From Alphaproteobacteria bacterium (GTDB taxonomy: Bacteria > Pseudomonadota > Alphaproteobacteria > GCA-2731375), in the NCBI GenBank assembly GCA_965232515.1, contig CBDDPY010000002.1, forward strand, positions 5,696,001 through 5,760,000: a stretch of DNA of 64,000 nt. The letters are read 5' to 3'. Numbering within the stretch: the stretch's first letter is position 1; each line of letters opens with the position of its first letter. Below, one piece after another: positions 1 to 17,021 of the stretch. Under the pieces are notes generated by a model. The model was not told where the DNA came from. It searched no databases and saw only the letters and a program-made list of their open reading frames with translations. A program made the translations under genes and the position numbers.

Positions 1-833
1 TCGTCGCGCGCCGGCGCTTCGACCAGGCAGGCAAGACCGGCATTCTGAGCGTAGACCTCGACCTCAAGCACGGCCTCGTCCGGCACCCAGCCCTGTACGG
101 CGACGATGCCGTCGACGTCGCGGGTCTGCTGATCGGCGTGCGTCAACGAGGCGCGGTTCTCGGCTTCGGCAAGATTGACGCTCAGGAGATAGATGTAGCG
201 GGTCAACGCCTCGCGCCGCGCCACCAGGTCCTCGATCCCGACCTCGGTGTCTTCGAGCTGTGCTTTCAGCTCGCTTGCGGGCAGCGCGCCGGTATGCGTG
301 CGCGGCACCGGCAGCAGATCGGCCGGCGGCTCGTCATCCGCGATGACCACGACATAGGCGAAGCGGTTGTCCCTGCGCACGATTTCCCAGGGCAGATCGA
401 CGCGGTCGAGGCTGCTCAGCATGCGCAGCGGCAGCAGGTAGAACCACAGGCGATACCCGGCCAGCTCGTCGTGCGGCGGGAATACCAGATCGCCCCAGGG
501 CACAAGCTCGCCGATGCGGTGTTGCAGGAAATCGCGCCGGTCGGTGGCGTCCCGCAGCCGCTGTTTGACCTCCAGCGCATCCTCGACCAGCTTCTCCACG
601 TCGAATGCGGGATCGCGTGTCACCTGCTTGCGCTTCTCCGCCGTATCGGTCAGGAAGCGCAGCGCCTTGTAGGCGGACTCGGCGCGCGGCGACGCCACGT
701 CCTCGACCTCGGCCGGCGCCGGCCGCAGCGGCAGCAAATGCATGCAGCCGAGTTTCTGCAGTCCCTCCAGGACGTCGCTCTTTTCCTTCAGCAGGCCGCA
801 GAGCGTGACCTTCCTGAGGGCGACGATGCTCAT
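1..833 (-). CDS. atpI: V/A-type ATP synthase subunit I, N-terminal part (runs off left edge)
   Basis: Not in ORF track. ATG at 833 overlaps the subunit D stop (ATGA) and reads [33 protein letters not shown], typical of a subunit I N-terminus; follows B and D. Confidence 0.85.
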   Translation of the reverse strand, partial: MSIVALRKVTLCGLLKEKSDVLEGLQKLGCMHLLPLRPAPAEVEDVASPRAESAYKALRFLTDTAEKRKQVTRDPAFDVEKLVEDALEVKQRLRDATDRRDFLQHRIGELVPWGDLVFPPHDELAGYRLWFYLLPLRMLSSLDRVDLPWEIVRRDNRFAYVVVIADDEPPADLLPVPRTHTGALPASELKAQLEDTEVGIEDLVARREALTRYIYLLSVNLAEAENRASLTHADQQTRDVDGIVAVQGWVPDEAVLEVEVYAQNAGLACLVEAPARD

Positions 834-1435
834 GCCGTTGCCGCCGTCGCGTGCTTGCGTTTGGCGATCTTGGAGCGCACAACAGCGGCCTTCTCCGCGT
901 CCGACAGATAGATCTGCACGCGTTTGATGTTCCGCCGGGTCTTCGGGATCAGCACCTTGTCGAACAGGTTGACGCGCTGCGTGATGGTCTTGACCGCCGC
1001 GTCGAGCAGCGCCAGGCGTTGCACTTCGACCTGGACCGCGATGCGCAGCTTCAGCATCTCGGTCAATCTCGCCGCGACGGCGTCGACCCAATGCGGCCGG
1101 CCCATCAGCGCATAGGACCTGATCTCGACATCGACCGCCTCGACCACCGGCAGCCGCGTGCCGACGATGTTCTCCGTGCCCAGCCTGACGTCCGTCACCT
1201 TGGCGAGGTCGGTGAGATCGACATCGCGGTCTGCCAGCATGCGCAAACGCCGACCGACGTTCTTCTCCAGCGCCGCGATCTCGGTGCGGGTCGCGGCCAG
1301 CGACCGCGCGGCCTTGGCCCGTTCCGCCATCAGCTGCTGGCGTTTCAAGTCCAGTGACGGCAGGAAACGCTCGAAGGTCGCCAGGCTCTTCCGCTCGCGC
1401 GCCAGCGAGGACTTACTGAGCTGCAGCCGCGCCAT
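830..1435 (-). CDS. atpD: V/A-type ATP synthase subunit D
   Basis: 201 aa; [11 protein letters not shown] and [13 protein letters not shown] motifs; lies between B and I. Confidence 0.95.
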
Positions 1436-2834
1436 GGCCAGCTTCTTCTTCTGATTCTGCCTCGGTCTCGGACGCGGCCTCGGCCGTCTCGGACGGCGAC
1501 AGGTCGGTGGGGAAGTACTTGTCGATCAGGTCCTGCTTCATCAGCAGCTGTTCCGGCCGGAAACACTCGGCGAGCGTCCGCCAGCTCAGATCGAGCGCGT
1601 CCTCCAGCGGGATCGACACGTCGATGTCCATAAATCGTTCGCGGAACAGGTCGCTGAACTTCAGGAGCTGCTCGTCGTAGTCCGACAGCTCGAAGGCCAT
1701 GGCCTGTTTCTGCTGCGCCTCGCGCCCGCCGGAATAGAACCGGATCATGGTGTTCATGATCTGGCCGTGGTCCTCGCGTGTGACCTTGCCAATCACGTTC
1801 TGCTTCAGGCGCGACAGCGAACCGAAGGGATCGATGACGCCGTCATGCAGATAGAACTGGCCCTCGGTGATGTAGCCCGTGTTGTCGGGCACGGGATGGG
1901 TGACGTCGTCGCCCGGCATGGAGGTCACCGTCAGCAGCGTCACCGAACCGCCCTTGGCGAAGTCGCAGGCCTTCTCGTAGCGCCGGGCGAGCTGCGAATA
2001 GAGATCGCCCATGTAGCCGCGGTTAGACGGCACGCGCTCCATCGAAATGCCGACCTCCTTCAGGGCATCGGCATAGGCCGTCATGTCGGTCAGAAGCACC
2101 AGCACGCGCTTGCCTTCCTCGACGGCGAAGCGTTCGGCCACGGCCAGCGCCATGTCCGGCACCAGCAGCCGCTCGACGATGGGGTCCGAGGCCTGATTGA
2201 TGAACATCACCGTGCGCGAGAACACGCCGGCGTCCTCGAAGTTCTTCCGGAAAGTGAAGTAGTCGTCGAAGATCAGCCCCAGCCCGCCGAACACGACGAT
2301 ATCGGCGTCGGCCTGAATGCCGATGCGAGCCAGGAACGGATTGAACGGCTCGCCCGAGACCGAGAAGATCGGGATCTTCTGGCTCTCCACCAGGCAGTTG
2401 AAGATGTCGATCATCGGCACGTTGGTGCGGATCATCTTGGTCGGTACGATGCGCTCGCACGGGTTCACCGACGGCCCGCCGATCTCGACCTTGGCGTCCA
2501 TCGACAGGTCGGGGCCGCCGTCGATCGGGTTGCCCTTGCCGTCGAACACGCGGCCCAGGATGTTGGGCGAATAGGTCACCTGCATGGGATGGCCCAGGAA
2601 GGTGACGGTCGCGGCCGTCGACACGCCCTTGGTGCCGTCGAACACCTGCAGCGACACGGCGTCGCGGTTGATGTTGATGACCTGCGCCAGCGACGTGCCG
2701 CCGTCGGCCTGCTCGATCATGGCCAGATCGCCGAATCTGACCGCGGCCGCGTCCCCATTGCCGGCCGGCGGCACCTGCACCTTCAGGATATCGCCGACGA
2801 TCTCCAAGACCTTGGAGTAGCGCACAAGTTCCAT
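1413..2834 (-). CDS. atpB: V/A-type ATP synthase subunit B
   Basis: 473 aa; [47 protein letters not shown] motifs. Confidence 0.96.
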
Positions 2835-2885
2835 ATTCTGCCCCGTCTGTCCCCGTTGCCCCTGTCGGTAATCGTTAGATGGATT

Positions 2886-3104
2886 TCAGTTTCGCTTTTT
2901 CGACTCCGCAGCATTGGATTGGTCGTGGTCCGGCTCGGCCGGGTCCTGCAACCGGTAAATGGTGAACTCGCCCTGCTTGGATGTCAGCAGACCCGCGCCG
3001 GGCGGTATCTCACGGCGGTTGTGCGAGGTGTCGCCGCGCTTGATCTCGACGCCGGCGCAGGCGGCAAGCAGCAGGCAGACGGCGATGGTCAGCCCAACGC
3101 GCAT
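2886..3104 (-). CDS. Small lipoprotein of unknown function
   Basis: 72 aa; signal peptide with lipobox LLAAC; start overlaps the porin stop. Confidence 0.75.
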   Translation of the reverse strand: MRVGLTIAVCLLLAACAGVEIKRGDTSHNRREIPPGAGLLTSKQGEFTIYRLQDPAEPDHDQSNAAESKKRN

Positions 3105-4522
3105 CAGAACTTCACCCGCGTGCCGACGGTGCCCACGTAGATCTCCTCGATGTCAGGATCGCTGTCCCGATCCAGGTCGAAGAAACGGAACTGGGCGTAA
3201 AGCTCGGTGCCGTAGTCCTCGATCAACTGCACGGCGGCGACGCCGAAGCTGGTGCCCTCGTCGTCCTGTTGGATGACGTTTTCGTTGTAGGTCGCATCGA
3301 TGCCGAATCCGGTCGCGCCAAAGCCGAAGAACCGGGTGTCCCAGGACAGCTTGCCATAGAGGTTAAAGGGATTGTCGCCGTCGTCGACCTCATCGGTGCC
3401 GGCCGAGACCGTCAGGCCGAGGCCGCTCGGGTTGTGAATGGCCGAGAACGAGCCGGCGAGACGCCAATCGGCCTCGGCGGTGTTCGGGTCCCGGATCGAG
3501 ACCGCGCCCAGCGTGGTGAACGGTCCGATATCGACGCCGGTCCAGTCGCCGTAGTCGCCGCCCCAGGTCAGCGCGGCATCCTGGCGATCGTCCGAGCCGG
3601 CCGAGACCGAGAGTTGCAGCCCGGGGCCGACCACGGGCGAATCGTAGCGCACCCGGTCCTGGCGGTTGCCGTCGAAATTGAAGAAGGCATCGCCGAGCGC
3701 GATGCCGGTGAGCGCGCCGCCGGCCGTCGTGAACTGAATGCCGCCGACGACGTCCGAGACGCCGGAATACATGATCGGCCCGGCGACCAGCGAGAGGTCG
3801 TACTCGGCCGTATCGTCGGCCGCGGCCGCGCCCTTGCCGAACAGGATTTGGCCATAGGCGTCATTGCGGGCCAGCGCCTCGACCTTGCGCACGTCGATGA
3901 AATCGTCGGCGCTCTGGTTGGTCTGGCTGACGTCGAACGAGTTGTTCGGGCTGAAGGCGATCTCGACCACGGTGCCCAGTGTCGTTTCGTCGGTCACCGC
4001 GGCGGTGCCGACGAAGCGCAGCCGCGAATTCGAGACGTCGTTGTCGACGAAGAAAGCGTCGGTCTCGTCGCCGTCATCGACCACGTTCACGGCCCGGTTC
4101 AACTGACCGGAGATTGCCAGCTTGATGCGGTCGCTGCCCGATGTGATCAAACGCTCGCCCTCGGGTCGGGTCTTCTGCGCCGTGTCGATCGCCTGCCGTG
4201 CGGTCGACTGCGCCTCCGAGGCAATGCTCTGGGTCTCGGTCGAGGTTTGCTCAAGCTGATCGAGACGGGTTTTCAGCGCCTGGATCGTCTGCATCTGCGT
4301 GTTGAGCTGATCGGACTGCTGTCGCAGCTGGTCCGATTGCTGCTGCAGGCGCGTTTCCTGCTGTTCGATGAGTTGCTGCAACTGCTGCAGCAGAGCGGCG
4401 TCGACAGCGACGGTCTGCGCCCGGGCCACGTCCGGCGGAGATACGGTCGCGACCACGATTGCCGCCAGCGCCCCAACGATCGTTGAACGAGATGTTCGCA
4501 TCATCGACCCCACTAATCTCAT
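3104..4522 (-). CDS. Outer-membrane porin with N-terminal Gln-rich coiled coil
   Basis: GGAGG RBS, signal peptide (VARA-Q), heptad/Gln-rich segment, ISGQLNRA and SNSRLRF porin-type strands, VRYDSP, C-terminal Phe (TRVKF). Confidence 0.85.
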   Translation of the reverse strand: MRLVGSMMRTSRSTIVGALAAIVVATVSPPDVARAQTVAVDAALLQQLQQLIEQQETRLQQQSDQLRQQSDQLNTQMQTIQALKTRLDQLEQTSTETQSIASEAQSTARQAIDTAQKTRPEGERLITSGSDRIKLAISGQLNRAVNVVDDGDETDAFFVDNDVSNSRLRFVGTAAVTDETTLGTVVEIAFSPNNSFDVSQTNQSADDFIDVRKVEALARNDAYGQILFGKGAAAADDTAEYDLSLVAGPIMYSGVSDVVGGIQFTTAGGALTGIALGDAFFNFDGNRQDRVRYDSPVVGPGLQLSVSAGSDDRQDAALTWGGDYGDWTGVDIGPFTTLGAVSIRDPNTAEADWRLAGSFSAIHNPSGLGLTVSAGTDEVDDGDNPFNLYGKLSWDTRFFGFGATGFGIDATYNENVIQQDDEGTSFGVAAVQLIEDYGTELYAQFRFFDLDRDSDPDIEEIYVGTVGTRVKF

Positions 4523-4544
4523 CGTTCCCTCCTAATCCAACTCG

Positions 4545-5483
4545 CTAATCGTGAAAGCTGATGCCGTCGAAGCTCTTGCCGATGCGCGTGCCTTTTTCGC
4601 CGCGCACGATCGCCGGCATGTCGGCGAGCGCACCGATCGCCGCGACGTTCCCTGTGGCGACGGCGAACTGGCAGGCGGCGTCGACCTTCGGGCCCATGGA
4701 TCCGGCGGGAAAGTCGTAGCTCGCCATTTCCGACGGCGTGGCCTCGAAGATGCCCTTGGCCTCGGGCGTGCCCCAATCGACGAACACGGCATCCGCGTCC
4801 GTCGCCATGATGAACAGATCGGCCTCGAGCTCGCGGGCCAGCAGCTCGGAGCAGAAATCCTTGTCGATCACCGCTTCAACGCCGGTCAGCTTGCGGTCGG
4901 CCCCGGGCGCGTACATGGTCGGCACGCCGCCGCCGCCGGCGCAGATCACCACGGTGTTGTGCTCCAGCAGCCACTTGATCGGCCGCATCTCGAAAATGCG
5001 CTTGGGCGCCGGCGACGGCACCACGCGGCGCCATTTGTCGCCGTCGGGCTTGAACACCCAGTCCTTCTGTTCGGCGATCCGGTCGGCCTCGTCCCTTTCG
5101 TAGACCGGCCCGACGAACTTCGTGGGATCCTTGAAGCCGGGATCCTCGGGATCGACCTCGACCATGGTCAGGATGGTCGCGAACGGCACCTCGAACGGCA
5201 GCAGGTTGCCCAGCTCCTGCTCGATCATGTAGCCGATCATGCCCTCGGTCTCGGCGCCCAGCACGTCCAGCGGATAGGCCTCGTCCGGCTTGTAGGCGGC
5301 GCCCTGCAGCGCCAGCAGGCCGACCTGCGGCCCGTTGCCGTGCGAGACGACGAGCTGATGCTCCTCGGCGAGCGGCGCCAGCGCCTCCGCCGCGATGCGG
5401 ATGTTCTCGCGCTGGTTCTCCGCCGTCATGGCCTGACCGCGCCGGAGCAGCGCGTTGCCGCCCAGCGCAACGACGATCCGCAT
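4545..5483 (-). CDS. arcC: Carbamate kinase
   Basis: [31 protein letters not shown] motifs. Confidence 0.97.
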
Positions 5484-5486
5484 GGC

Positions 5487-6488
5487 TCAGCTCCCGATCG
5501 CGGCGACCAGCACGGCCTTGATGGTGTGCATCCGGTTCTCGGCCTGTTCGAACTGAATGCCGGCCGCGGACTCGAAGACTTCGTCGGTCACCTCCATCTC
5601 GGCGATGCCGAACTTCTCGTGCATCTCCTCGCCGACCTTGGTCTCGCGGTTGTGGAAAGCGGGCAGGCAATGCATGAACTTGGTCGAGCCGACACCGGTC
5701 GACGCCATCAGCTCGGCATTGACCTGATACGGCGTCAGCAGCTTGATCCGCTCCTCCCAGACCTCGGCCGGCTCGCCCATCGAGACCCAGACATCGGTGT
5801 GCACGAAATCGCAGCCTTTCACCGCCTCGTGCGGATCCTCGGTGATACTGAGTTTGGCGCCGTAGGTGTCGGCCAGCCGGCGCGCCGCGCTCTCATACTC
5901 GTCGTTCGGCCAGTTCGCCTTCGGCGCGGCGATGCGCACGTCCATGCCCATCAGGCAGCCGGCGATCATCAGCGAGTGGCCCATGTTGCTGCGCGCGTCG
6001 CCGACATAGGCGTACGAGATCTCGTGCAGCGGCTTGTCGGCATGCTCGCGCATGGTCAACAGGTCGGCCAGCATCTGGGTCGGATGGAACTCGTCGGTCA
6101 GGCCGTTGAAGACCGGCACGCCGGCATAGGACGCCAGCTCCTCGACGATTTCCTGTCCGAAGCCGCGATATTCGATCGCGTCATACATGCGGCCCAGCAC
6201 CCGCGCCGTGTCCTTCATCGATTCCTTGTGGCCGATCTGCGAGCCGGACGGGCCGAGATAGGTGACGCCCGCGCCCTGATCCATCGCCGCCACCTCGAAG
6301 GCGCACATGGTCCGGGTCGAGGTCTTCTCGAAGATCAGGCAGATATTCTTGCCTTTCAGATGCTGCTGCTCCGTGCCGGCGTATTTCGCCCGCTTCAGGT
6401 CGCGCGACAGATCCAGCAGATAGCGCATCTCGCGCTGGTCGAAGTCGAGCAGCTTCAGAAAGCTGCGCCCCTTGAGATTGAAAGCCAT
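5487..6488 (-). CDS. arcB: Ornithine carbamoyltransferase (catabolic by context)
   Basis: [23 protein letters not shown] motifs; lies between arcA and arcC. Confidence 0.95.
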
Positions 6489-6532
6489 CGTATCGTCTCC
6501 CTAGGTCACCCGGGTCCGACACCCGGTCCGTG

Positions 6533-7765
6533 TCAGTAATCGACCGCGTCACGCAGAACCGGACAGGTCATGCAGTGGCCGCCGCCGCGGCCGCGGCCCA
6601 GTTCGTTGCCGGCGATGGTCACGACCTCGACGCCGGCCTTGCGCAGCAACGTGTTGGTGTAGGTATTGCGCTCGTAGGCGACGACCACGCCCGGCTCCAG
6701 GGCGACGACGTTGTTGCCGTCGTCCCACTGCTCGCGCTCGGCCTCGTAGGCGTCGCCGCCGGTATGCACCCGGCGCAGCGACGACAGGCCCAGCGCCTCG
6801 GCGACCACCGTGGGGAAGTCCTTGTTTTCCTCGGTGATCGAGAGCTCGCCCTCCTTGTCGCCGGGCCGCAGCGAGAACGGCCGGATCGTGTCCACCACGT
6901 CGGGGAACATGTTCACGAGGTCGCGGTCGCAGAAGGTGAACACGGTATCCAGATGCATGGCCGCGCGTTCTTTCGGCATCGCCGCGGCGATCACATGGCT
7001 GGCGCCGCCCTTGGCGAACAGCTGGCGCGCGATCTGCCCCACCGCCTGCGGCGTCGTCCGCTCGCCCATGCCGATCAGCACCACGCCGTTGCCGATGGGC
7101 TGGATGTCGCCGCCCTCGACGAAGGCCATGCCGTGGCCGTTCTCGACGTCGTCGCCCCACCAGAACTCGAACTCGGCCGCCTTGAACATCGGGTGGAACT
7201 TGTAGATCGCCGCCGTGTTCAGCGTTTCCTGCCGTCGCGCCGGCCAGAACATGGGATGCAGGGTCACGCCGCCATAGATCCAGGCCGACGGGTCGCGGGT
7301 GAACAGCTGGTTCGGCAGCGGCGCCAGTACGAATTCCTGCGGCTCCAGAAGCTTGGCCAGCATGCCGTTAGGCTCGAACGGCAGCTCCGCGCGGCTGATG
7401 CCGCCGATCAGATGCACCGAGAGCTGATAGGCGTCCATTTCCATTAGCCAGGCGTGCAGGTCCTGGGCGATGCCGACGCCGACCACGTTCTCGGAGATCC
7501 GCAAGTTCAGCAGCCATTCGCGCGCCGCCATGTCGCGCATGGTCTCCTCCAGCAGCTCACGGAACAGATAGACCTCGATGCCGCGATGGCGCATTTCGTC
7601 GACGAAGGCCAGATGCTCCTGGCGTGCCTGCTTGACCCATAGGACGTCGTCGAACAGCAGCTCGTGGCAGTTGGTCGGCGTCAGGCGCGAGATCGCCAGG
7701 CCCGGGCGATGCACGATCACCTTCCGCAGCTTGCCGATCTCCGAATGGACCCCAAGTTTCGTCAT
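6533..7765 (-). CDS. arcA: Arginine deiminase
   Basis: True start [16 protein letters not shown] at 7765 with AAGGAG RBS (410 aa); [24 protein letters not shown] motifs. Confidence 0.97.
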
Positions 7766-9159
7766 GTCGCGTCTCCTTGATTGACCGCCGTCCCCAAATC
7801 GGATGTGTGGTTGCGCCATTTCAGCCAGACATAGACCGGCACGCCGGCGATCAGCAGCAGGAAGCCGTAGAAGACGATCTCTCGGCCGGCCCCATAGATC
7901 GCCCAGGCGGAATAGAGGAAGCCGATCACGGCCAGCCCGAACACGGGCGCCAGACCCTTCCGGGCGACCGTGTGGCCGCGGGTGACATAGATCATCAGCT
8001 CCGCCAGCGCGCAGAACAGGTAGGGCACCAGCGTCGTCAGCGTCGCCAATAGGATGATGAAGACGAATTGGTCGACCAGGCCCTTGGTGAAGTTCATGGC
8101 GATCAGCAGGCTCGCCAGCGTGTTCGAGACGATGAGCGCGAAGACCGGCGTCCTGGCCTTGGACAGGCGGGCGAACTGGCGTGGAAACAGGTCGTCGCGG
8201 GCCGCGCCCAGCGGCACTTGGCCGGTCAGCATGGTGAAGCCGTTCAGCGTGCCGAAGGTCGAGATGCAGGCCGCGACCGCAATGAACGTGCCGCCCGCCG
8301 CGCCCCACATGACCACCGCGACGTCCGCCAGCGGCGCGCTGGAGGTCTGCAGGTCGGTCAGCGGCGCGACGCCCAGCGCGACGATTGTCACGACGATATA
8401 GACCGCGGCCGCCAGGCTGGTGCCCAGGATGGTGGCGCGCGGGATCGTGCGTTCGGGCTCGGCCACATCGCCGGCCGGCACGGTCGCGGACTCCAGGCCC
8501 AGGAAGGCCCACAGCGTCAGCGCGGCGCAGGCGGCGATCGCGGCGGCGTTGCTTTCCTGGCTGACGTTCACGGGCGTGAAGTTGCCGGGTGAAACATAGG
8601 CGAGGCCGATGACAGCGATCAGCAAAAGCGGCACGACTTTCAGGACCGTCGTCACCAGCTGGATCGTGCCGGCCTCGCGCACGCCGCGGATGTTGACCCA
8701 GGTCAGCAGCCAGATCGCGCCGAGCGCCGTCGCCAGCCCGGCGAGCGGGCTGTCGCCGATGACGGGAAACAGAAATCCGACATAGCCCGAGAAGGCCACC
8801 GCGACCGCCGCGTTGCCGGCCCACAGCGCGATCCAGTAGCCCCAGGCGATGAGAAATCCGGCGAAATCGCCGAAGCCCTCCCGCGAATAGGCGTACGGGC
8901 CGCCGGTCTTCGGCACCAGGCGGGCGAGGCGGCCGAAGATCAGCGCCAGCACAATGGCGCCGGTCGAGGTAACGAGCCAGCCGGCGATCGAGATCGGACC
9001 GTAGGCGGCGAGCGCGGCGGGCAGCAGAAAGATGCCCGATCCGATCATGTTGCCGACCACCAGGGCCGTGCACATCCACAACCCGAGCTTGCCGGCGGAC
9101 GCGGCGTCGCCGGGCGCTGGCTTCAGCGCCGCCGCGATCGCCATGTCGTCGTTCGGCAT
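7762..9159 (-). CDS. APC-family basic amino acid antiporter (ArcD/AdiC/PotE-like)
   Basis: [28 protein letters not shown] motifs; many TM segments; start 9159 (or 9144); stop overlaps arcA start. Confidence 0.9.
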
Positions 9160-9170
9160 GCCGTCCGTTC

Positions 9171-10586
9171 CTATTGCAGCAGCGTCGCGACGCTGATCGC
9201 CGCCATGATGATCACGGTCAGGATCACCAGCAGCGGCCACATGAAGCGCAGCCAGCGCTCGTACGGCACCCGGCCCAACGCCAGGCCGCCCATGACCACG
9301 GCGAAGGTCGGGTTGACCAGGTTCACCAGGCCGCTCGCCGACTGATAGGCCGTCACCACCAGAGCGCGCTGGACATCGGCAAAGTCGGCCAGCGGCGCCA
9401 TGATCGGCATGGTCAGCACGGCCAGGCCGGAGGACGAGGGCACGAAGAACGACAGCGCCACCTCGATCCCGAACATGGCGTTGATGAAGCCGATGGCGGA
9501 CAGGCCGCTGACCGCGCCCTCGGCCCAGAACAGGATGGTGTCGGTCATCTTGCCGGCGTCCATCACCACGACGATGCCGCGGGCGATGCCGATGACCAGC
9601 GCGACGCCCAGCAGATCGCGGGCGCCGTCGACGAAGGTGTTGGTGAAGTCTTCCTCGCTCATGCGGGCGATCACGCCAACGACGATCGCGGCGACGATGA
9701 ACAACCCCGACATCTCGGCCATCCACCAGCCGCCGGCCGACACGCCCCAGATCATCACCGCGAAGCTGCCGGCGAAGATCAGCAGCACGATCTTGCGCGT
9801 CAGCGTGAATTCCAGCAGATCCGAATTCTCGGACGCTTCACGACCCTTCAGGAAATGCTCCTCGTTCGACGCCCGCCGGTCGGCGACGATCGAGCGCTCG
9901 GGGTCCTGCCTTACCCGTTCCGCGTAGCGCATCACGTAGACCACGCAGGCGAGCCAGCACAGGATCAGGATGACGAAGCGGAGGATGATCCCGTCCGTGA
10001 ACGGCACGCCGGCCGCGTTCGCCGCGATCACCGTGGCGAACGGGTTGATGGTCGAGCCCAGCGTACCGACGCCGGCGCCCAGCATGATGATGGCGACGCC
10101 GGTGACGGCGTCGTAGCGGGCCGCGATCATCACCGGGATGATCAGGGTGTAGAAGGCGAGCGATTCCTCGGCCATGCCGTAGATCGTGCCGCCGGCCGCG
10201 AACAGCGCCATCAGGATCGGGATCATCCATTTTTCCCGGCCCCGCAGCCGGCTCATGGCCCGCTCGATGCCGGCGTCGATGGCGCCTGTTTTGGTGACGA
10301 TGCCCAGAAAGCCGCCGATGATCAGCACGAACAAGGCGACGTCGATGGCGCGCGCCTCATAGCTGCCGGGATCGAAGAACCCGGCGATCGGCGCGAGCAC
10401 GATATCGACGAACCCCTGCGGGTTCGGCGCGACCTCCTTATAGGTGCCGGGGACGGGCACGTCCCGGCCCAGCGCTTCGTTCAGTTGCCGGTCGTATTCG
10501 CCCGCCGGCACGAACCAAGTGGCGATGGCGACCACGACGATCAGGCCGAAAAGAATGGTGTAGGCACTCGGAAACTTGAGCTTCAT
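9171..10586 (-). CDS. YfcC-family basic amino acid antiporter
   Basis: [30 protein letters not shown] motifs; about 471 aa; hydrophobic. Confidence 0.9.
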
Positions 10587-10650
10587 GTGATGCGTCCCCC
10601 ACGGACCGGCCGCCGACATCGGCCAGCACGATTACGAAGCTGTCGTCACG

Positions 10651-11568
10651 TCACTCCGGCAGCGCGGTCATGAGAAAACGCCTCACGACGCCGCGACCCG
10701 GGCGTCCGAAGTAACGCGCAAAGATCGGCACGACCTCGAGCGTGCGGTAGACCCTGGACAGGCTCCGATCGACCAGCAATCGGAAGTCCTCGTCCCGTTT
10801 TGCCAGGGCCAGACCGTACGGCTCGTGGGTATACAGCCGCTCGCCGATCACGAATTGATCTGCATCATCGGCCGTCTCCAGCAGGCCCAGAAGGATGGCG
10901 CGATCCGCGAAATAGGCGTCGAGCGCGCCCTCGCCGACCTGTCGAAGGCCGTCGTTGTGGCTGTCGACGGTGACCAGCGTGGCGTTCGAGGCAAGGAACC
11001 TGATGCCGCCGCGCAGCCAGGTTTCCGCCGTCGTGTTGGCGCGCACGCCGAAGGTCCGGTCGGTGAAGGCCTGGAACAGGGCGGCGCGGGCCGGCAGCGT
11101 CGACCGCCGCTTCGCCAGCGTGTCCTGCAGGAACCTTGGCGCATCGGCCCGCATCACCGCCGCGACCCCGGTGCGGAAGATCGGGATCGAGAAAGAGACG
11201 AGTTCGCGCCGTTCGAGCGTCACGGTGCTGGCGCCGCACAGGATGTCGACCCGACCGTCGGCGACGGCCTGGAAACGCTCCTCGGTCGACACCGGCAGAT
11301 ATTCGACGGCCAGCTCTTCCAGTTCGAGCGTGGCCTTCACATCGAGCGCGATCTCGCGGCAGAGTTCGACGGTGTACCCGCTCGGGTCACCGGCCTCGTT
11401 CTTGAAGGAAAACGGCGCCGCGTCCTCGCGGTAGCCGATCTTGAAAACGCCGGCTTCCGCGACGCGTTCCAGCGTTTGCGCGACGGCCGGCGCCGCAACG
11501 AGTGGCAAGAGCAGCGCACTGATGAGCATCGCCGATACGCTAAGTCCGCGTCTGGATGTGACTGTCAT
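10651..11568 (-). CDS. Polar amino acid substrate-binding protein (GltI-like, orphan)
   Basis: Signal peptide; IGYREDAAPFSF, VDILCG, TLERRELVSFS, EPYGL motifs; no ABC permease or ATPase adjacent. Confidence 0.85.
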   Translation of the reverse strand: MTVTSRRGLSVSAMLISALLLPLVAAPAVAQTLERVAEAGVFKIGYREDAAPFSFKNEAGDPSGYTVELCREIALDVKATLELEELAVEYLPVSTEERFQAVADGRVDILCGASTVTLERRELVSFSIPIFRTGVAAVMRADAPRFLQDTLAKRRSTLPARAALFQAFTDRTFGVRANTTAETWLRGGIRFLASNATLVTVDSHNDGLRQVGEGALDAYFADRAILLGLLETADDADQFVIGERLYTHEPYGLALAKRDEDFRLLVDRSLSRVYRTLEVVPIFARYFGRPGRGVVRRFLMTALPE

Positions 11569-11652
11569 GTCATTCCATCCCGGTCTGCCGAGCTTCCACG
11601 AACGCGAACGGCAACAGTGCGCAACGCTTAGCACCACGACGCCGCCCGACGC

Positions 11653-11666
11653 CTGACCTATCTCAA
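11653..11666. promoter_or_regulatory. Possible CRP/FNR-type (FixK/Anr-like) site
   Basis: CTGA-CCTATC-TCAA, a 7/8 match to TTGA-N6-TCAA, in the arc/xfp divergent spacer. Confidence 0.35.
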
Positions 11667-11814
11667 AGACAGGCGCCGGATCTGCGGGCTCTCTGAAGGC
11701 ATGTGTTGTTCAGCGGACAATTGTCCTGTTCACCGTCCGATGGTCACAGAATGGTCACAACGTCTGGTTGCGGAACCGGTCGGGGTACGCTGTCGCTAAT
11801 TCTTGAGAGGGGTC

Positions 11815-14181
11815 ATGGCTGACGTTCTGTCGAACGAGGAATTCCAGGCGATCGACGCCTATTGGCGGGCGGCGAATTACCTGTCCGTCGGGCAGATCTA
11901 TCTGCTCGACAACCCGCTGCTGAAACAGCCGCTCGAGCTCGCGCACATCAAGCCGCGGCTGCTGGGGCATTGGGGCACGACGCCCGGCCTGAACTTTATC
12001 TACGTGCACCTGAACCGGCTGATCCGGAACCGGGATCTCGACATGATTTACGTGGCCGGTCCAGGACATGGTGGGCCGGGCCTGCTGGCCAACACCTATC
12101 TCGAGGGCAGCTACAGCGAGGTCTATCCCAACGTCTCACGGGACGCCGGTGGCATGCGGCGGCTGTTCAAGCAGTTCTCGTTTCCGGGCGGCGTGCCGAG
12201 CCACGTGGCGCCGGAAACGCCGGGCTCGATCCACGAGGGCGGCGAGCTCGGCTATGCGCTCTCGCACGCCTACGGCGCGGCGTTCGACAACCCCGATTTG
12301 CTCGTCGCCTGCGTCGTCGGCGACGGCGAGGCCGAGACCGGGCCGCTGGCCACGGCCTGGCATTCGAACAAGTTCCTCAATCCGGCCCGAGACGGCGCGG
12401 TGCTGCCGATCCTGCATCTGAACGGCTACAAGATCGCCAACCCGACCGTGCTCGCCCGCATCAGCGAGCAGGAGCTCGAAAGCCTGTTCGTCGGCTACGG
12501 CTACAAGCCGCATATCGTCGCCGGCGACGAACCCGAACGCATGCACCAGCAGATGGCCGCCACGCTCGACGCCGTCGCCGCCGAGATCCAGGAGATCCAG
12601 CAACAGGCGCGCAGCGGCGGCTTCACCGAACGCCCGCGTTGGCCGATGATCGTCCTACGCACGCCCAAGGGCTGGACCGGGCCGAAAGAAGTCGAGGGCA
12701 AGAAGGCCGAAGGCTCCTGGCGGTCGCATCAAGTGCCGCTGTCCAGTATGGCGGCGAAGCCCGCTAACGTCGGCCTGCTGGAAGACTGGCTGAAAAGCTA
12801 CCGGCCCGACGAACTGTTCGACGAAGCCGGCAGTCTGAAACCCGAGCTCGCGGCGCTCGCGCCCGAGGGCAACCGCCGCATGGGCGCCAATCCGCACGCG
12901 AACGGCGGCGTGCTGCTGAAAGATCTGCGGCTGCCGGACTTCCGCGACTACGCCGTTGCGGTCGACCAACCCGGCGCGGCCAGGGCCGAGGCGACTCGCG
13001 TGATGGGCCAGTTGCTGCGCGACGTCATGGCCGGCAACGAAGATCACAGCAATTTCCGCGTGTTCGGCCCGGACGAGACCGCATCTAACCGCCTAAGCGC
13101 CGTGTTCGAGGTGACGGATCGCGCCTGGACCGCCGAGACCGTCGACGGCGACGATCATCTGTCGCCGGACGGCCGGGTCATGGAGATCCTCAGCGAACAT
13201 ACCTGCCAGGGCTGGCTCGAGGGTTATCTGCTGACCGGCCGGCACGGCCTGTTCTCGACCTACGAGGCCTTCGTGCACGTCATCGACTCCATGTTCAACC
13301 AGCACGCCAAATGGCTGAAGTCGACCAGCCAGGAAATCCCCTGGCGCCGCCCGATCGCGTCCTTGAATTACCTCCTGACCTCGCACGTCTGGCGCCAGGA
13401 CCATAACGGCTTCAGCCACCAGGACCCCGGCTTCATCGATCATGTCGTCAACAAGAAGGCCGACGTGATCCGGGTCTACTTCCCGCCCGACGCCAACACG
13501 CTGCTGCACGTTACAGACGACTGCCTGCGCAGCCGCAACAAGGTCAACGTCATCGTCGCCGGCAAGCAGCCGCAGCCGCAATGGCTGGACATGGACGCCG
13601 CCGTCAAGCACTGCGCCGCCGGCATCGGCATCTGGGCCTGGGCCAGCAACGACCAGGGCGCCGAGCCGGACGTGGTCATGGCCTGCTGCGGCGACGTGCC
13701 GACCATCGAAACGCTGGCCGCGGTCCAGATCCTGCGCGAGCAGGCGCCCGAGCTGAAGGTCCGTGTCATCAACGTGGTCGACCTGATGCGGCTGCAGCCG
13801 CGCGAGGAGCATCCGCACGGCCTCTCCGACAAGGCGTTCGACGTGCTCTTCACCACGGACAAGCCGATCATCTTCGCCTATCACGGCTATCCCTGGCTGA
13901 TCCACCGGCTGACCTACCGGCGCACCAACCACGACAATCTGCACGTCCGCGGCTACAAGGAGGAGGGCACCACCACCACCCCTTTCGACATGGCCGTGCG
14001 CAACGACATCGATCGCTTCCATCTGGTCGAGGACGTCATCGACCGGGTGCCCAAGCTCGGCCCCCGCGCGGCCTACGCCAAGCAGGCCGTCCGCGACAAG
14101 CTGATCGAGCACAAGCAGTACATCCGCACCCACGGCGAGGACATGCCGGAAATCCGCGACTGGAAATGGTCGCTGTCGTAG
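11815..14181 (+). CDS. xfp: Phosphoketolase (xylulose-5-P/fructose-6-P)
   Basis: [36 protein letters not shown] motifs; ATG at 11815 after GAGAGGGG. Confidence 0.97.
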
Positions 14182-14197
14182 GCCGCGCTGGCGGCCG

Positions 14198-14608
14198 TCA
14201 GCCTTCGCGGTCGCAGTTCACCATCCAGGGGATACCGAACCTGTCGGTCAGCATGCCGAAGCGGATCGCCCAGAACGTCTCCTCGATGGGCATGCGCACG
14301 GTCCCGCCGTCCGCCAGCGCGTGGAACACGCGTTCGGCGTCCTCGGCGCTCTCCATCTGCAGCGAGATGGAAAACCCGGTCGGCGTCTGCCGGCGGTCGG
14401 GCGGCGTGTCCGAGCCCATCAGCACCTGATCGCCGATGACGAGGCGGGCGTGCATGATCTTCTCGCCCCATTCCTTCGGCGCGAAGTCCTCGGCGGGCGA
14501 GCCCGCGAACGGCAGCATGGCCTCGATCTCGCCGCCCAACACCTCTTCGTAGAACCGGAACGCCGCCGCGCAGTCGCCGCCAAACTCCAGGTAAGGATTA
14601 ATCCGCAT
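14198..14608 (-). CDS. VOC/PhnB-family protein
   Basis: INPYLEF, IMHARL, ETFWA, DRFGIPW motifs; AAGGAGG RBS. Confidence 0.9.
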   Translation of the reverse strand: MRINPYLEFGGDCAAAFRFYEEVLGGEIEAMLPFAGSPAEDFAPKEWGEKIMHARLVIGDQVLMGSDTPPDRRQTPTGFSISLQMESAEDAERVFHALADGGTVRMPIEETFWAIRFGMLTDRFGIPWMVNCDREG

Positions 14609-14727
14609 CTGCATTGCCTCCTTCACGACCACCGCGAGCAGTCGATGTTGCGACACAGTTCCGAACCCGTGGTCTCGAATCCTACCAGCTTTACCTTTGA
14701 GTTAGCGCGGTCATGGAAACTGTGTCC

Positions 14728-15630
14728 TTAGTCGATCCGTCTTGCATCGTCGACGGCGAAGGCTTCGACGATGCGGGCATAGCGTTCGCCGTCTCGGAAG
14801 CCACCGTGACTGACCAGGTAGTAGCCGCGCTCCGATGTCAGCGGCTGATCGAAGACGGTCACCAGCACGCCGCTCCGCAGCAGATCGGCGATCACCTCGG
14901 TCCAGCCCAGGGCGACGCCCAGGCCCTGGATCGCCTGATGGATGGCGATGCCGTGGTTGGTCAACAGCGCGCTGTGATCGACAGCGTCGGCGTCGGGCGC
15001 GAACCGGGCCTGCCAATCGTCCCAGGTGAACCAGCGGTTCTCCGGATCCTCGAGATGGATCAGCGGCCCGTTGCGCAGCAGCTCCGCCGGGGTGAGGTCG
15101 CCGAGCCGGGCCCGCAGTGCCGGCGCGCAGACCGGCACCACCGATTCATGAAACAGCAGTTCCGCCCTGACGCCCGGCCAGCTGCCGTCGCCGAATAGGA
15201 TTGCGCAGTCCACATCGTGCGGCGAGATCTCCGCGTCGAGCTCGCTGGTGACGATGCGAACGCTGAGATCCGGACGGTTCGCCCGCAGGCGGGCGAGGCG
15301 CGGCAGGACCCAATACGATGCGATCCCGGGATAGGTGGCGAGCGTGATCGGTCCCGTGTTCCGGCGGTCGCGCAGCCGCGCGCTGGCCCGGGCCAACTCG
15401 TCCAGCGCGGTTGAGACCGTGGGATAGAGCTCGTTGGCCTCCGACGTCGGCACCACGTTGTTGGCTTGCTTGCGGAACAGCCGGGTTCCCAGATCTTTTT
15501 CCAGCGCCCGGATCTGGTGGCTGATGGCGGGCTGCTTGACGTTGAGTTCGCCCGCGGCCTTGGTGAAGCTGCCGAGCCGGTAGCAGGCTTCAAACGCCCG
15601 GACAGCTTTCAAAGGCGGAAGATCCCGCAT
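14728..15630 (-). CDS. LysR regulator, GcvA-like, divergent from dmdA
   Basis: LPPLKAVRAFEA, SFTKAA, AISHQIRALE HTH; WVLPRL; QGLGVAL. Confidence 0.93.
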   Translation of the reverse strand: MRDLPPLKAVRAFEACYRLGSFTKAAGELNVKQPAISHQIRALEKDLGTRLFRKQANNVVPTSEANELYPTVSTALDELARASARLRDRRNTGPITLATYPGIASYWVLPRLARLRANRPDLSVRIVTSELDAEISPHDVDCAILFGDGSWPGVRAELLFHESVVPVCAPALRARLGDLTPAELLRNGPLIHLEDPENRWFTWDDWQARFAPDADAVDHSALLTNHGIAIHQAIQGLGVALGWTEVIADLLRSGVLVTVFDQPLTSERGYYLVSHGGFRDGERYARIVEAFAVDDARRID

Positions 15631-15638
15631 GTCGGCTC

Positions 15639-15653
15639 ATCGATTTTTTCGAT
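15639..15653. promoter_or_regulatory. LysR recognition site (T-N11-A palindrome)
   Basis: ATCGA-TTTTT-TCGAT just upstream of the LysR start. Confidence 0.55.
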
Positions 15654-15899
15654 AATGGCATGAAGTTTATCGACGTTTATCCGCTAAGCAAGTCCTGTTG
15701 GAATCGGGATCTGGAACGATCGATTCCAATTAGAAAAATAATAGACCCAGGGGACCGCTCCGGTGAGGAGCCATGGCGGTAATGCGCAAGCGATGAGTGG
15801 GTATCGGCACCGCGCGGAGATCTTCCGGATCTGCCCGTGAGCGCGGAATCGGGTGTGCACGACGTCATCGCGTCGGCGCCAGGCTTCGGACCCGATCCG

Positions 15900-17021
15900 A
15901 TGTCGGTGCCGACGATTGCCATATCGCGCCGGACGCGCGCCACGCCATTCACGGACCGGGTGAAGGCCGCCGGCGTCAAGTCGTACACCGTTTATAACCA
16001 TATGCTGCTGGCGACCGTCTTCCGGTCGCTGGAGGAAGACTACTGGCACCTCTGCCAGCACGTTCAGGTCTGGGACGTGAGCTGTCAGCGCCAGATCGAA
16101 CTGCACGGACCGGACGCCGCCCGGCTGGTACAGCTGATGACGCCGCGCGATCTCAGTCGGGCCGTGATCGGGCAATGCCTTTATGCGCCGATCGTCGACG
16201 ACGCGGGCGGTCTGCTCAATGATCCCGTGGTCCTGAAGCTGGACGACGACCGCTACTGGCTGTCGATCGCCGACAGCGACCTGCTGTTTTGGGCCAAGGG
16301 GCTGGCGCTGGGCTTCGCGCTCGACGTCGAGGTCACGGAAGCGGACGTGTTTCCGCTCGCGGTTCAGGGACCGAGGGCGGACGACCTGATGGTCCGGGTG
16401 TTCGGCGAGGCGGTGCGCGAGATCGGCTTCTTCCGCTTCGCCCGGCTATCGTTTCAGGCGCACCCACTGGTGATATCGCGCTCCGGCTGGAGCAAGCAGG
16501 GCGGTTTCGAGATTTATCTCGATGCACCCTCGCTCGGCCCCGAATTGTGGGATGCCCTCATGCAGGCCGGCGCCGACCTCGATGTCGGGCCGGGCTGTCC
16601 CAACCTGATCGAGCGGGTCGAAAGCGGTCTCTTGTCCTACGGCAACGAGATGACGCGCCAGAACAATCCATACGAGGTCGGCCTGGACCGCTACTGCAAG
16701 CTCGACGGCCCCTGGTTTATCGGCAAGCCGGCGCTGCAACGGATCAAGGCCGCCGGACCGGCCCGTCGGCTGCGCGGTATGCGTTTCGAGGGCGCGCCGA
16801 CGCGCGTGTCCACGACGTCCTGGGCGATCCGGTCCGGCGGCGCTCTGGTCGGGCGGCTGCCGACGGCCGTGTGGTCGCCGCGCTTCGGCGCCAACATCGG
16901 TTTCGCCATGATGGAACGGGGTTGGTGGGATGCCGGCACAGAGGTCGAGATTGACGTGGCCGACGGCAGCCTTCGCCGAGGCCGGGTTTGCGATTTGCCG
17001 TTTGCGGAGACCACTGGCTGA
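15900..17021 (+). CDS. dmdA: Dimethylsulfoniopropionate demethylase (GcvT-family)
   Basis: SRR..TPF, YTVYNHMLL, HVQVWDV, LAVQGPRADDLM.RVFGEAVR, RSGWSKQGGFEIY, GCPN.IERVESGLLSYGN closely match roseobacter DmdA as I recall it. Confidence 0.88.
   Translation: MSVPTIAISRRTRATPFTDRVKAAGVKSYTVYNHMLLATVFRSLEEDYWHLCQHVQVWDVSCQRQIELHGPDAARLVQLMTPRDLSRAVIGQCLYAPIVDDAGGLLNDPVVLKLDDDRYWLSIADSDLLFWAKGLALGFALDVEVTEADVFPLAVQGPRADDLMVRVFGEAVREIGFFRFARLSFQAHPLVISRSGWSKQGGFEIYLDAPSLGPELWDALMQAGADLDVGPGCPNLIERVESGLLSYGNEMTRQNNPYEVGLDRYCKLDGPWFIGKPALQRIKAAGPARRLRGMRFEGAPTRVSTTSWAIRSGGALVGRLPTAVWSPRFGANIGFAMMERGWWDAGTEVEIDVADGSLRRGRVCDLPFAETTG

Follow-up and report, generated by a model that had tools for sequence, protein, structure and literature searches.

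Arginine deiminase genes running into a permuted V-type ATPase operon: a candidate arginine-powered ion pump in an alphaproteobacterium

At one end of a 64,000-nucleotide stretch of DNA from a marine-type alphaproteobacterium (the window; C2:5696001-5760000 of a 7.39-Mb assembly), the genes of the arginine deiminase (ADI) pathway run directly into an operon for a V-type ATPase. Eleven genes, all on the minus strand, make up this block, in the order family-3 solute-binding protein (SBP), YfcC carrier, APC antiporter, arcA, arcB, arcC, porin, lipoprotein, atpB, atpD and atpI (Table 1). The reading we favour, at a probability of about 0.6, is that the block forms the front two thirds of a ~20-kb acquired supra-operon that couples arginine fermentation to a second, ATP-driven rotary pump. 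Under this reading, arginine would enter through the porin and be exchanged for ornithine, and the ADI pathway would provide one ATP per arginine at carbamate kinase, its ATP-yielding step, together with two NH3. The V-ATPase would hydrolyse the arginine-derived ATP and expel ions, most likely H+, which would keep up membrane potential, transport and the pH/ammonium balance when the respiratory chain and the F-type synthase cannot, that is, during anoxia and possibly under acid stress. The pumping direction, the ion, co-transcription and the anoxia or acid physiology are what we infer; the gene content and its conservation are what we observed.

Gene calls were made from a listing of open reading frames (ORFs) together with profile searches (Pfam, NCBIfam), and both bear out the eleven-gene, one-strand block described in an earlier note on this DNA. 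The spacings in gene order are +31, +11, -4, +44, +3, +22, -4, +51, -23 and -4 nt (gaps positive, overlaps negative), with four overlaps in the block, among them 4 nt between the APC stop and the arcA start and 23 nt between atpB and atpD. The shared direction and tight packing claimed earlier therefore stand, while the accompanying figure of gaps up to 64 bp does not, since the widest gap is 51 nt (2835-2885). The products of arcA, arcB, arcC, atpB and atpD exceed NCBIfam equivalog cut-offs, so that all three enzymes of the ADI pathway are recognised at that level. A second ornithine carbamoyltransferase (OTC), also above the cut-off (357.5 bits), is encoded at C2:3570321-3571229, and arcC is the single carbamate kinase match genome-wide; together these fit a catabolic role for arcB and arcC, with arcB presumably the catabolic OTC and the second copy of the genome, as judged from sequence.

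The V-ATPase is not complete within the window. Beyond base 1 lie the rest of atpI, then atpK, atpE, a DUF2764 gene and atpA (L009:14833..9345), which overlap or sit at most 14 nt apart, and the full operon comprises seven genes in the order B-D-I-K-E-DUF2764-A, with atpB first. These genes are translationally coupled. The catalytic A and B subunits carry the V/A-specific C-terminal domain, the A-subunit insertion is present, and the rotor/stator set D, I, K and E is recognised, with subunits I and E divergent. Profile searches recognised no F, G/H or C gene in the operon, and the DUF2764 protein may stand for C/d. Because an F1 beta subunit (830 bits) is also encoded in the genome, the V-ATPase is a second rotary enzyme. 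Past the operon, L009:1-8300 (C2:5682001-5690300) holds a cluster of six or more glycosyltransferase genes (GT4, GT10 fucosyltransferase-like and DXD-motif types).

Table 1. Features of the block and of the V-ATPase operon that continues beyond it; positions are those of the window, and cut-offs are those of the named profiles.
Feature	Position	Strand	Evidence
SBP_bac_3, family-3 solute-binding protein, periplasmic	10651..11568	-	PF00497 E=1e-22
YfcC/DcuC-family carrier	9171..10619	-	PF03606 E=5e-125
APC-family basic amino acid/polyamine antiporter	7762..9159	-	PF13520 E=4e-55
arcA, arginine deiminase	6533..7765	-	TIGR01078 496.5 bits (cut-off 489.1); PF02274 E=5e-127
arcB, ornithine carbamoyltransferase	5487..6488	-	NF002470 550.5 bits (cut-off 545)
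arcC, carbamate kinase	4545..5483	-	TIGR00746 395.3 bits (cut-off 358.25)
Outer-membrane porin	3104..4522	-	homologues with PF13609; predicted barrel model
Lipoprotein, 73 aa	2886..3107	-	lipobox LLAAC read from sequence
Lipoprotein-atpB spacer, 51 nt	2835..2885	-	without terminator- or sigma-70-like site
atpB, V-type ATPase subunit B	1413..2834	-	NF002555 725.1 bits (cut-off 431); PF00006, PF22919, PF02874
atpD, V-type ATPase subunit D (rotor)	830..1435	-	NF002565 196.4 bits (cut-off 189); PF01813 E=2e-37
atpI, 5' part (subunit I/a, 599 aa in total)	1..833	-	ATG at 833 overlaps atpD stop
atpI, whole	833 -> off-window	-	PF01496 34.3 (cut-off 30.7); NF004429 226 bits (under 799)
atpK	off-window		NF007200 173.6 (cut-off 108)
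atpE	off-window		NF002424 85.8 (under 241), E = 3e-24
DUF2764 gene	off-window		23.9 bits vs cut-off 24.1
atpA	off-window		NF003220 753 (cut-off 470); PF16886, PF22919

A gene-neighbourhood search, as proposed in the earlier note, recovered the linkage in other genomes. We compared a genome set (the best 80 of 342 atpB relatives, one genome per species, 68-90% identity) and a metagenome set (the best 80 of ~310). The hosts of the 80 genome loci are marine Alpha- and Gammaproteobacteria, cyanobacteria, a Planctomycetota metagenome-assembled genome and Legionella longbeachae, and the permuted gene order is kept in all of them as far as the sequence reaches. Eleven of these loci have arc genes next to the V-ATPase operon, ten upstream and one downstream: the arc genes lie directly upstream of atpB in L011, L012, L013, L045, L047, L055, L056, L057 and L061, are present there as decayed remnants in L023, and follow atpA directly in L083. 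Arc linkage was also found in 17 of the 80 metagenome contigs, in 2 of which only the module's porin is visible, and in one of eight loci from the nine atpB-positive genomes of a class-wide sample described below; six of these eight loci keep the permuted order. Of 16 V-ATPase genomes in which arcA was found, 12 have the two systems side by side and 2 have them apart, while the other 2 allow no assignment.

The manner of joining differs between loci. Either arcC directly precedes atpB, or porin and lipoprotein genes stand between them, or the porin lies between arcB and arcC, or the arc genes follow atpA. The distance from the arcC stop to the atpB ATG is ~21 nt in L045 and L047 and ~28 nt in L061; the arcC-porin-atpB order of the window recurs in L057 and L115, and in L116 and L176 a porin gene directly precedes atpB. 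Downstream of atpA the neighbours are heterogeneous (87 ORFs at 49 loci, after 13 near-identical Ruegeria loci and five with <1.5 kb downstream were left out), with arc genes only in L083. Three local observations belong here. In Pelagibius litoralis DSM 21314 (L023:8148-9913), arc genes have decayed beside an intact atpB, leaving a truncated YfcC, arcB residues 254-333 and arcC residues 1-202, and this module appears to be in the process of being lost. In Ruegeria lacuscaerulensis (L083:17737-19139), the YfcC match is split over two frames by a frameshift or an assembly error, and the APC gene behind it is intact. A 205-aa ORF between arcC and atpB in L012 and L013 is Arg-rich, has no family match and was set aside as a probable shadow frame.

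Phylogenies of both halves argue against a single fusion event passed on as a block. A quick-search LG+G4 tree of the B and A subunits (68 rows) spreads the linked loci over a single 48-row clade and requires at least eight changes in linkage; forcing the 11 linked V-ATPase rows into one clade costs 857 log-likelihood units (approximately unbiased test, p = 4e-55). In an arcA tree (21 rows, careful search), the linked genes fall into at least three groups, interleaved with arcA of V-ATPase-free genomes, and the starred branches force four changes. The first group holds the window, L055, L057, L090 and L056, the second L012, L013, L083, L045 and L047, and the third L061 with two unlinked genes. 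Either the pairing arose several times, or it persisted while its parts were swapped, and both repeated origin and exchange of parts point to selection for adjacency.

These results bear on an alternative, namely that arc and V-ATPase genes sit together only because they were carried on the same mobile segment, with no energetic or regulatory coupling. Both halves do look acquired, since atpB (E<=1e-80) and arcA (E<=1e-40) are each absent from all 60 relatives searched (one congener, 31 other genomes from the family and 28 from the class, all 71-100% complete), and they probably arrived together. Moreover, the V-ATPase operon moves widely: at 68-90% identity, it is shared by Alpha- and Gammaproteobacteria, cyanobacteria and Planctomycetota. 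At most loci the neighbours are unrelated genes, for instance those for MatE, RTX or ABC transporters. However, one co-transferred block is insufficient to account for at least three arcA lineages, several arrangements and V-ATPases that do not form one clade; the spacers of 21-28 nt in three loci imply one transcript, and two other ATP-yielding modules occur at the same position. Nor did a transposase, integrase or tRNA turn up at the borders, where no systematic search aimed at them was made. We therefore regard mere hitch-hiking as unlikely and prefer coupling of arginine fermentation to the ATPase. As the earlier note held, V-ATPases are uncommon in Alphaproteobacteria: in an even sample of 400 genomes of the class, 9 carry atpB (E<=1e-100) and 11 arcA (E<=1e-60). 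Only G102 has both, with the arc genes directly upstream of atpB; this is one co-occurrence against 0.25 expected, numbers too small to weigh. Two class-sample operons depart from the usual order: that of L094 (G189) is split, with B-D-I-K-E on one strand and DUF2764-A divergent on the other, and in L096 (G076), from a 1.1-Mb genome, an atpB of another family (58% identical) is directly preceded by atpA and followed by atpD.

The arc genes are not the only ATP source found beside this V-ATPase. When the neighbours of non-arc loci were annotated and then searched by tblastn with fixed queries, with identities confirmed above NCBIfam cut-offs, 21 of the 80 genome loci proved to carry one module: 11 ADI, five acetate kinase (Ack) and five polyphosphate kinase 2 (PPK2). 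The remaining 59 include L040, where only the module's porin occurs, downstream of atpA. In L029, L030 and L065, genes for enoyl-CoA hydratase/phosphate acetyltransferase, acetate kinase and 3-oxoacid CoA-transferase A/B directly precede atpB; in L046, AckA-PduL and a DUF3141 protein (weakly PhaC-like) do so, and in L014 genes for phosphate acetyltransferase (Pta), AckA and CoA-transferase lie convergently after atpA. The PPK2 gene precedes atpB in L060, and it separates atpB from atpD in the cyanobacterial loci L017, L018, L020 and L021, where the enzyme (Crocosphaera, Dapis, unicellular cyanobacterium) is of the one-domain type (TIGR03707, 353 bits, cut-off 301.8). The metagenome set gave 17 ADI, four Pta-Ack and eight PPK2 contigs, one of the latter also with ADI, and 52 of 80 without a module. 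Of these 52, 29 have <1 kb of upstream sequence, and among contigs with at least 1 kb upstream 23 of 46 are positive. In the Planctomycetota locus L022, atpB is immediately preceded by a phosphofructokinase (PFK) gene, which was dropped from the ATP-source count, as the enzyme is ATP-dependent and consumes ATP.

Taken together, these neighbours make the V-ATPase family look like a portable membrane energiser driven by ATP, one that is connected to whatever source of non-respiratory ATP its host has. A broader proposal, which we offer tentatively and at slightly less than even odds, is that the mobile, permuted V-ATPase is a plug-in energiser that has been hard-wired repeatedly, often in one transcript, to arginine through carbamate kinase, to acetyl phosphate through Pta-acetate kinase and to polyphosphate through PPK2, and that, within the family, the clade bearing these links has lost the Gln of the Na+ site, suggesting a switch from Na+ to H+. 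In the Pta-Ack loci, acetyl phosphate may possibly derive from polyhydroxyalkanoate (PHA) breakdown. DUF3141 proteins (PF11339) occur by the V-ATPase or Pta-Ack genes at L030:3896-5335, L046:3136-5172 and L083:7409-9799 and in L129, L179, L151 and L155; the match to the class III PHA synthase PhaC is weak (35.9 bits), and it hints at PHA mobilisation as the carbon source of acetyl phosphate.

The PPK2 genes lend themselves to a different interpretation, in which the membrane energised by the V-ATPase is that of an internal compartment (an acidocalcisome-like polyphosphate body, for instance) rather than that of the cell, and the arc link is secondary. PPK2 is part of the operon or its neighbour at five of the 80 genome loci and at eight of the 80 metagenome loci, with copies inside the operon at L017:11395-12078, L018:1784-2467, L020:11405-12079 and L021:2011-2685 and also in L117, L119, L122, L123 and L146, and a Thiomargarita genome paper offers the speculation that a polyphosphate compartment is acidified by a V-ATPase (PMC4853749). 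Nothing in the window indicates such a compartment, however; a porin of the outer membrane and candidate exchangers of the cell envelope belong to the arc module, and PPK2-linked and arc-linked operons mostly belong to different subclades, so that we consider this interpretation very improbable and keep to a pump in the cell's own membrane. In L060, the polyphosphate:AMP phosphotransferase precedes the operon.

Several features of the enzyme are those expected of a pump. Subunit K has 150 aa, four helices and a single carboxylate, and in its alignment with E. hirae NtpK (2BL2) and Thermus subunit K it has Ser, in the first hairpin, at the position of the Thermus Glu. One carboxylate per four helices reportedly halves the ion/ATP ratio and favours pumping, an argument said to go back to Cross and Mueller in 2004, and the window's K subunit would thus have a lower ion/ATP ratio suited to a pump. 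The earlier note had suggested inspecting this subunit for Na+ ligands, and the site turns out to be incomplete: of T64, Q65, Q110 and E139, the Na+ ligand set of the E. hirae K subunit, the last two are conserved, with Ser in place of T64 and Met in place of Q65. Gln occupies the Q65 position in 18 of 81 relatives, chiefly rows from more distant Gammaproteobacteria, Roseibium, Legionella and Planctomycetota, and the other 63 have Met, Phe, Leu or another residue there. These 63 include all 12 arc-linked loci (M or F), all four Ack-linked loci and the PPK2-linked L060. From these ligand residues we infer that the V-ATPase clade of the window moves H+ rather than Na+.

It is also conceivable that the two halves are linked and co-selected while the V-ATPase does something other than hold the proton motive force, either working reversibly or as a synthase, or serving pH and ammonium handling, in which H+ moved outwards would trap NH3 as NH4+. 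Bacterial and archaeal A/V-type enzymes can make ATP, as in Thermus; ADI frees two NH3 per arginine and alkalinises the cytoplasm, which is established biochemistry, and a Na+/H+ exchanger with a TrkA-N domain that follows atpA on the same strand in L060 (17658-19376) suggests ion homeostasis as part of the role. The module has no gradient-forming step, however: there is no decarboxylase, and Arg/Orn exchange is near electroneutral. The single carboxylate per four helices, the F-type synthase already present in the genome and neighbours that make ATP rather than gradients likewise speak against such roles, and we hold a main role other than maintaining the proton motive force to be improbable.

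With respect to transcription, a consensus scan of positions 1..12500 found no promoter-like site and eight terminator-like sites, compared with 6.2 +/- 3.4 in shuffled sequence; the three on the minus strand are all intragenic. Four intergenic stretches fold no better than shuffles, and the lipoprotein-atpB spacer is less stably folded than they are (z = +1.64). The earlier note had seen no clear terminator, and neither the consensus scan nor the folding of the spacers revealed an intergenic one; the spacer at 2835-2885, which it had singled out as the place where a separate promoter or terminator would count against the idea, contains neither by these two approaches. Of the three outcomes that the note named as refuting, neither such a site nor a lack of conserved linkage was thus observed. 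Rfam returned no family match in window positions 1-16000 or in the 18-kb extension L009. Two RNA-Seq libraries labelled as another organism yielded contigs 95-99% identical to the region, which cover 29 of 30 and 24 of 30 of its bins at low and even depth, without a DNA-carry-over control; pieces bridge the atpI/atpD/atpB junctions and the arcC/porin junction. We take these contigs as a weak sign of expression. Two poly(A) RNA runs searched as raw reads (X21, X24) gave 0 reads and are uninformative on expression, and runs labelled coral, marine or sediment metagenome contained at most 0.16 of the words, which gives no evidence of habitat.

A number of observations weigh against coupling of arginine fermentation to a pump, or limit how far the comparisons carry. 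Linkage is the minority state, with 59 of 80 genome loci lacking all three ATP modules. In a further 43 V-ATPase genomes the operon has no arc neighbours: arcA is missing altogether from 39 of them, lies on a different large contig in two, and two more are too fragmented to tell. Both systems occur unlinked in G472 and G467. Both sets consist of the 80 closest relatives of the window's atpB, and their fractions are not prevalences. The category of ATP sources was formed after the first 80 loci had been seen, with the queries for the metagenome set fixed beforehand; that replicate is partly dependent, as L140 is from the organism of L046, L138 and L139 resemble L045, and many contigs belong to one series. 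Co-transcription is presumed here, a contig over two genes not being equal to one transcript, and in L011 and L056, whose V-ATPases are the closest relatives, arcC and atpB are 155-290 nt apart, which leaves room for a separate promoter. Regulation gives no support either. Allowing up to two mismatches, we found no FNR-like box in the 300 nt ahead of SBP or of atpB, and a box with at most one mismatch lies within 300 nt before atpB at only 4 of 76 loci, so that an FNR/ANR box as the common anaerobic signal of the family was rejected. Finally, V/A-ATPases are reversible in principle, and the pumping direction and the ion given above for the window's enzyme are putative.

Individual FNR-like boxes do occur: one with a single mismatch lies 249 nt upstream of YfcC, within the SBP gene, and L060 has a perfect FNR-type palindrome at -107 from atpB. 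The regulators that adjoin the module vary, with an AraC-type regulator in L055 and LysR regulators in L090 and the window. At 11700-11770 of the window, between SBP and the phosphoketolase gene (XFP), the minus strand carries a 9-nt direct repeat (11 nt apart) followed by a perfect 12-nt palindrome, and these may be regulator binding sites. The phosphoketolase itself (11803-14181, plus strand), divergent from the SBP gene, yields acetyl phosphate; it was rejected as part of the theme, having no homologue in 168 other loci, and its position is probably coincidental.

Within the arc module, the transporters are conserved to different degrees. YfcC lies upstream of arcA in L011, L013, L045, L047, L055, L056, L057, L061, L083 and L090, and it is the transporter in all arc-linked loci whose sequence extends far enough upstream. 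The window's carrier scores 308.8 bits on NF008611 ('putative basic amino acid antiporter YfcC'), under the cut-off of 500, and the YfcC-type carrier is a candidate arginine/ornithine exchanger. The APC protein, which reaches 337.8 on TIGR00905 (cut-off 409) and 235 on the arginine/ornithine antiporter model TIGR03810 (cut-off 591), is a candidate second Arg/Orn exchanger; its gene is missing from the arc-linked loci L055, L057, L061 and L090. The SBP is an accessory part of the module. It scores 99 bits on TIGR01096 (Lys/Arg/Orn binding; cut-off 256), is an orphan with neither an ABC permease nor an ATPase beside it, and has no homologue at any of the 80 genome loci. Homologues occur in 4 of 80 metagenome contigs, namely the arc-linked L126 (67%) and L150 (48%) and the non-arc L178 and L182, where the matches are weak (33-35%) and ~6 kb upstream.

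The porin and lipoprotein genes form a conserved two-gene cassette. The porin (472 aa) begins with a signal peptide and an N-terminal coiled coil, continues into a beta-barrel of the 16-strand type and ends in Phe (VKF). Its own sequence has no Pfam match; 362 homologues were found at E<=1e-10, many of them with PF13609 (Porin_4), and some sources call them porin. An AlphaFold model built from 44 sequences has a mean predicted local distance difference test (pLDDT) of 77.7; across the barrel, 10-residue blocks range from 72 to 95, most of them at 80-95. The barrel is preceded by the region of the signal peptide and by a long helix. Structural matches of the model include OmpT, BpsOmp38, Omp32 and OmpF (probability 1.00, TM(target) 0.6-0.68, about 0.67 for OmpT, Omp32 and OmpF), and E is ~1e-14 for OmpT, Omp32, OmpF and PorB. 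Together with the PF13609 homologues and an Atlas score of 0.98 for 'porin', these 16-stranded matches substantiate the name that the earlier note had given to the protein, and signal peptide, predicted OmpF/Omp32-type fold and C-terminal aromatic residue are all as in general 16-stranded outer-membrane porins. The lipoprotein has no Pfam or NCBIfam match. Its homologues, at 49-52% identity, lie directly behind the porin gene in L055, L011, L056 and L057, and porin homologues occur in the arc modules of L011, L055, L056, L057, L115, L148, L150 and L163. The cassette stands before YfcC (L011, L055, L056) or in the arcC-atpB interval (window, L057, L115). G102 has a different porin of the same architecture between arcB and arcC, and L045 has a Gcw_chp barrel protein ahead of YfcC, so that an outer-membrane channel is a recurrent element of the arc module. 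If our reading is correct, the cassette is a candidate arginine-specific outer-membrane channel.

Should arginine fermentation and the pump indeed be coupled, the system would offer a genetically tractable answer to the question of how strictly respiratory marine bacteria, many of them from algal, coral or sediment settings, hold a membrane potential through anoxia. It would also explain what the 'orphan' V-ATPases scattered through Proteobacteria and cyanobacteria are for, and would provide natural operon fusions (ADI, Pta-Ack, PPK2) in which to study how the ion/ATP ratio and the choice of ion are tuned for pumping.

Among known systems, the arc half most resembles the arcDABC operon of P. 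aeruginosa, in which an antiporter gene followed by arcA, arcB and arcC lies on one strand, the OTC is likewise a second, catabolic-type copy and carbamate kinase yields ATP. Unlike that operon, the window has a conserved putative exchanger of the YfcC/DcuC type, with the APC type optional, contains the porin-lipoprotein cassette, has no ANR/FNR box found upstream of SBP or atpB, and runs on into a V-ATPase. The V-ATPase half shares with the V-type Na+-ATPase of E. hirae (ntp; 2BL2) a four-helix, duplicated K proteolipid with one carboxylate and the equivalents of Q110 and E139. The ntp enzyme is a bacterial V-type enzyme believed to act as an ATP-driven pump. It differs from the window's in its complete Na+ ligand set (T64 and Q65 are Ser and Met in the window), in its gene order, F-I-K-E-C-G-A-B-D compared with B-D-I-K-E-DUF2764-A, and in its F, G and C genes, none of which was recognised in the window's operon. 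Closer in composition is the Chlamydia/Bacteroides-type seven-gene V-ATPase (NF002555, NF002565, NF007200), which has the same subunit set and whose cut-offs the window's B, D and K exceed. Its order is E-DUF2764-A-B-D-I-K, of which the window's operon is a circular permutation that starts with atpB and ends with atpA; unlike it, the window's family is joined to ATP-yielding modules. The operon of L096, with A directly before B and D, resembles the Chlamydia/Bacteroides type.

The physiology also has precedents. In oral streptococci, which combine ADI with an F-ATPase, and in the arginine fermentation of Halobacterium, ATP from arginine drives a rotary ATPase in reverse and NH3 raises the pH. 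There, pathway and ATPase lie at separate loci and the ATPase is the sole rotary enzyme, whereas the window has a dedicated second ATPase that is physically joined to the pathway and travels along with it. On this subject, PMC9287336 cites Marquis 1987 (its reference 27). A six-gene V-type operon without an assigned role is described for Cyanothece 8801/8802, Cyanobium and Synechococcus WH 5701 (PMC3187577). It probably belongs to the same mobile family, as Crocosphaera, Dapis, Synechococcus and a unicellular cyanobacterium are represented among our loci with atpB identities of 75-80%, and the paper's account of that operon makes no mention of PPK2 between atpB and atpD or of a link to ATP-yielding pathways. 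In the full-text literature searched, with subscription journals and supplements outside its scope, we found no description of an arc-, Ack- or PPK2-V-ATPase gene linkage, in keeping with the earlier note, whose author knew of none. The parts are known; what appears to be undescribed is their conserved fusion, with ATP-yielding modules joined to a dedicated and mobile V-ATPase of permuted gene order. Both halves are textbook matter, as is ATP from arginine driving a rotary ATPase backwards; what would be new is a dedicated second ATPase that is fused to an ATP-making pathway and moves with it between bacterial phyla.

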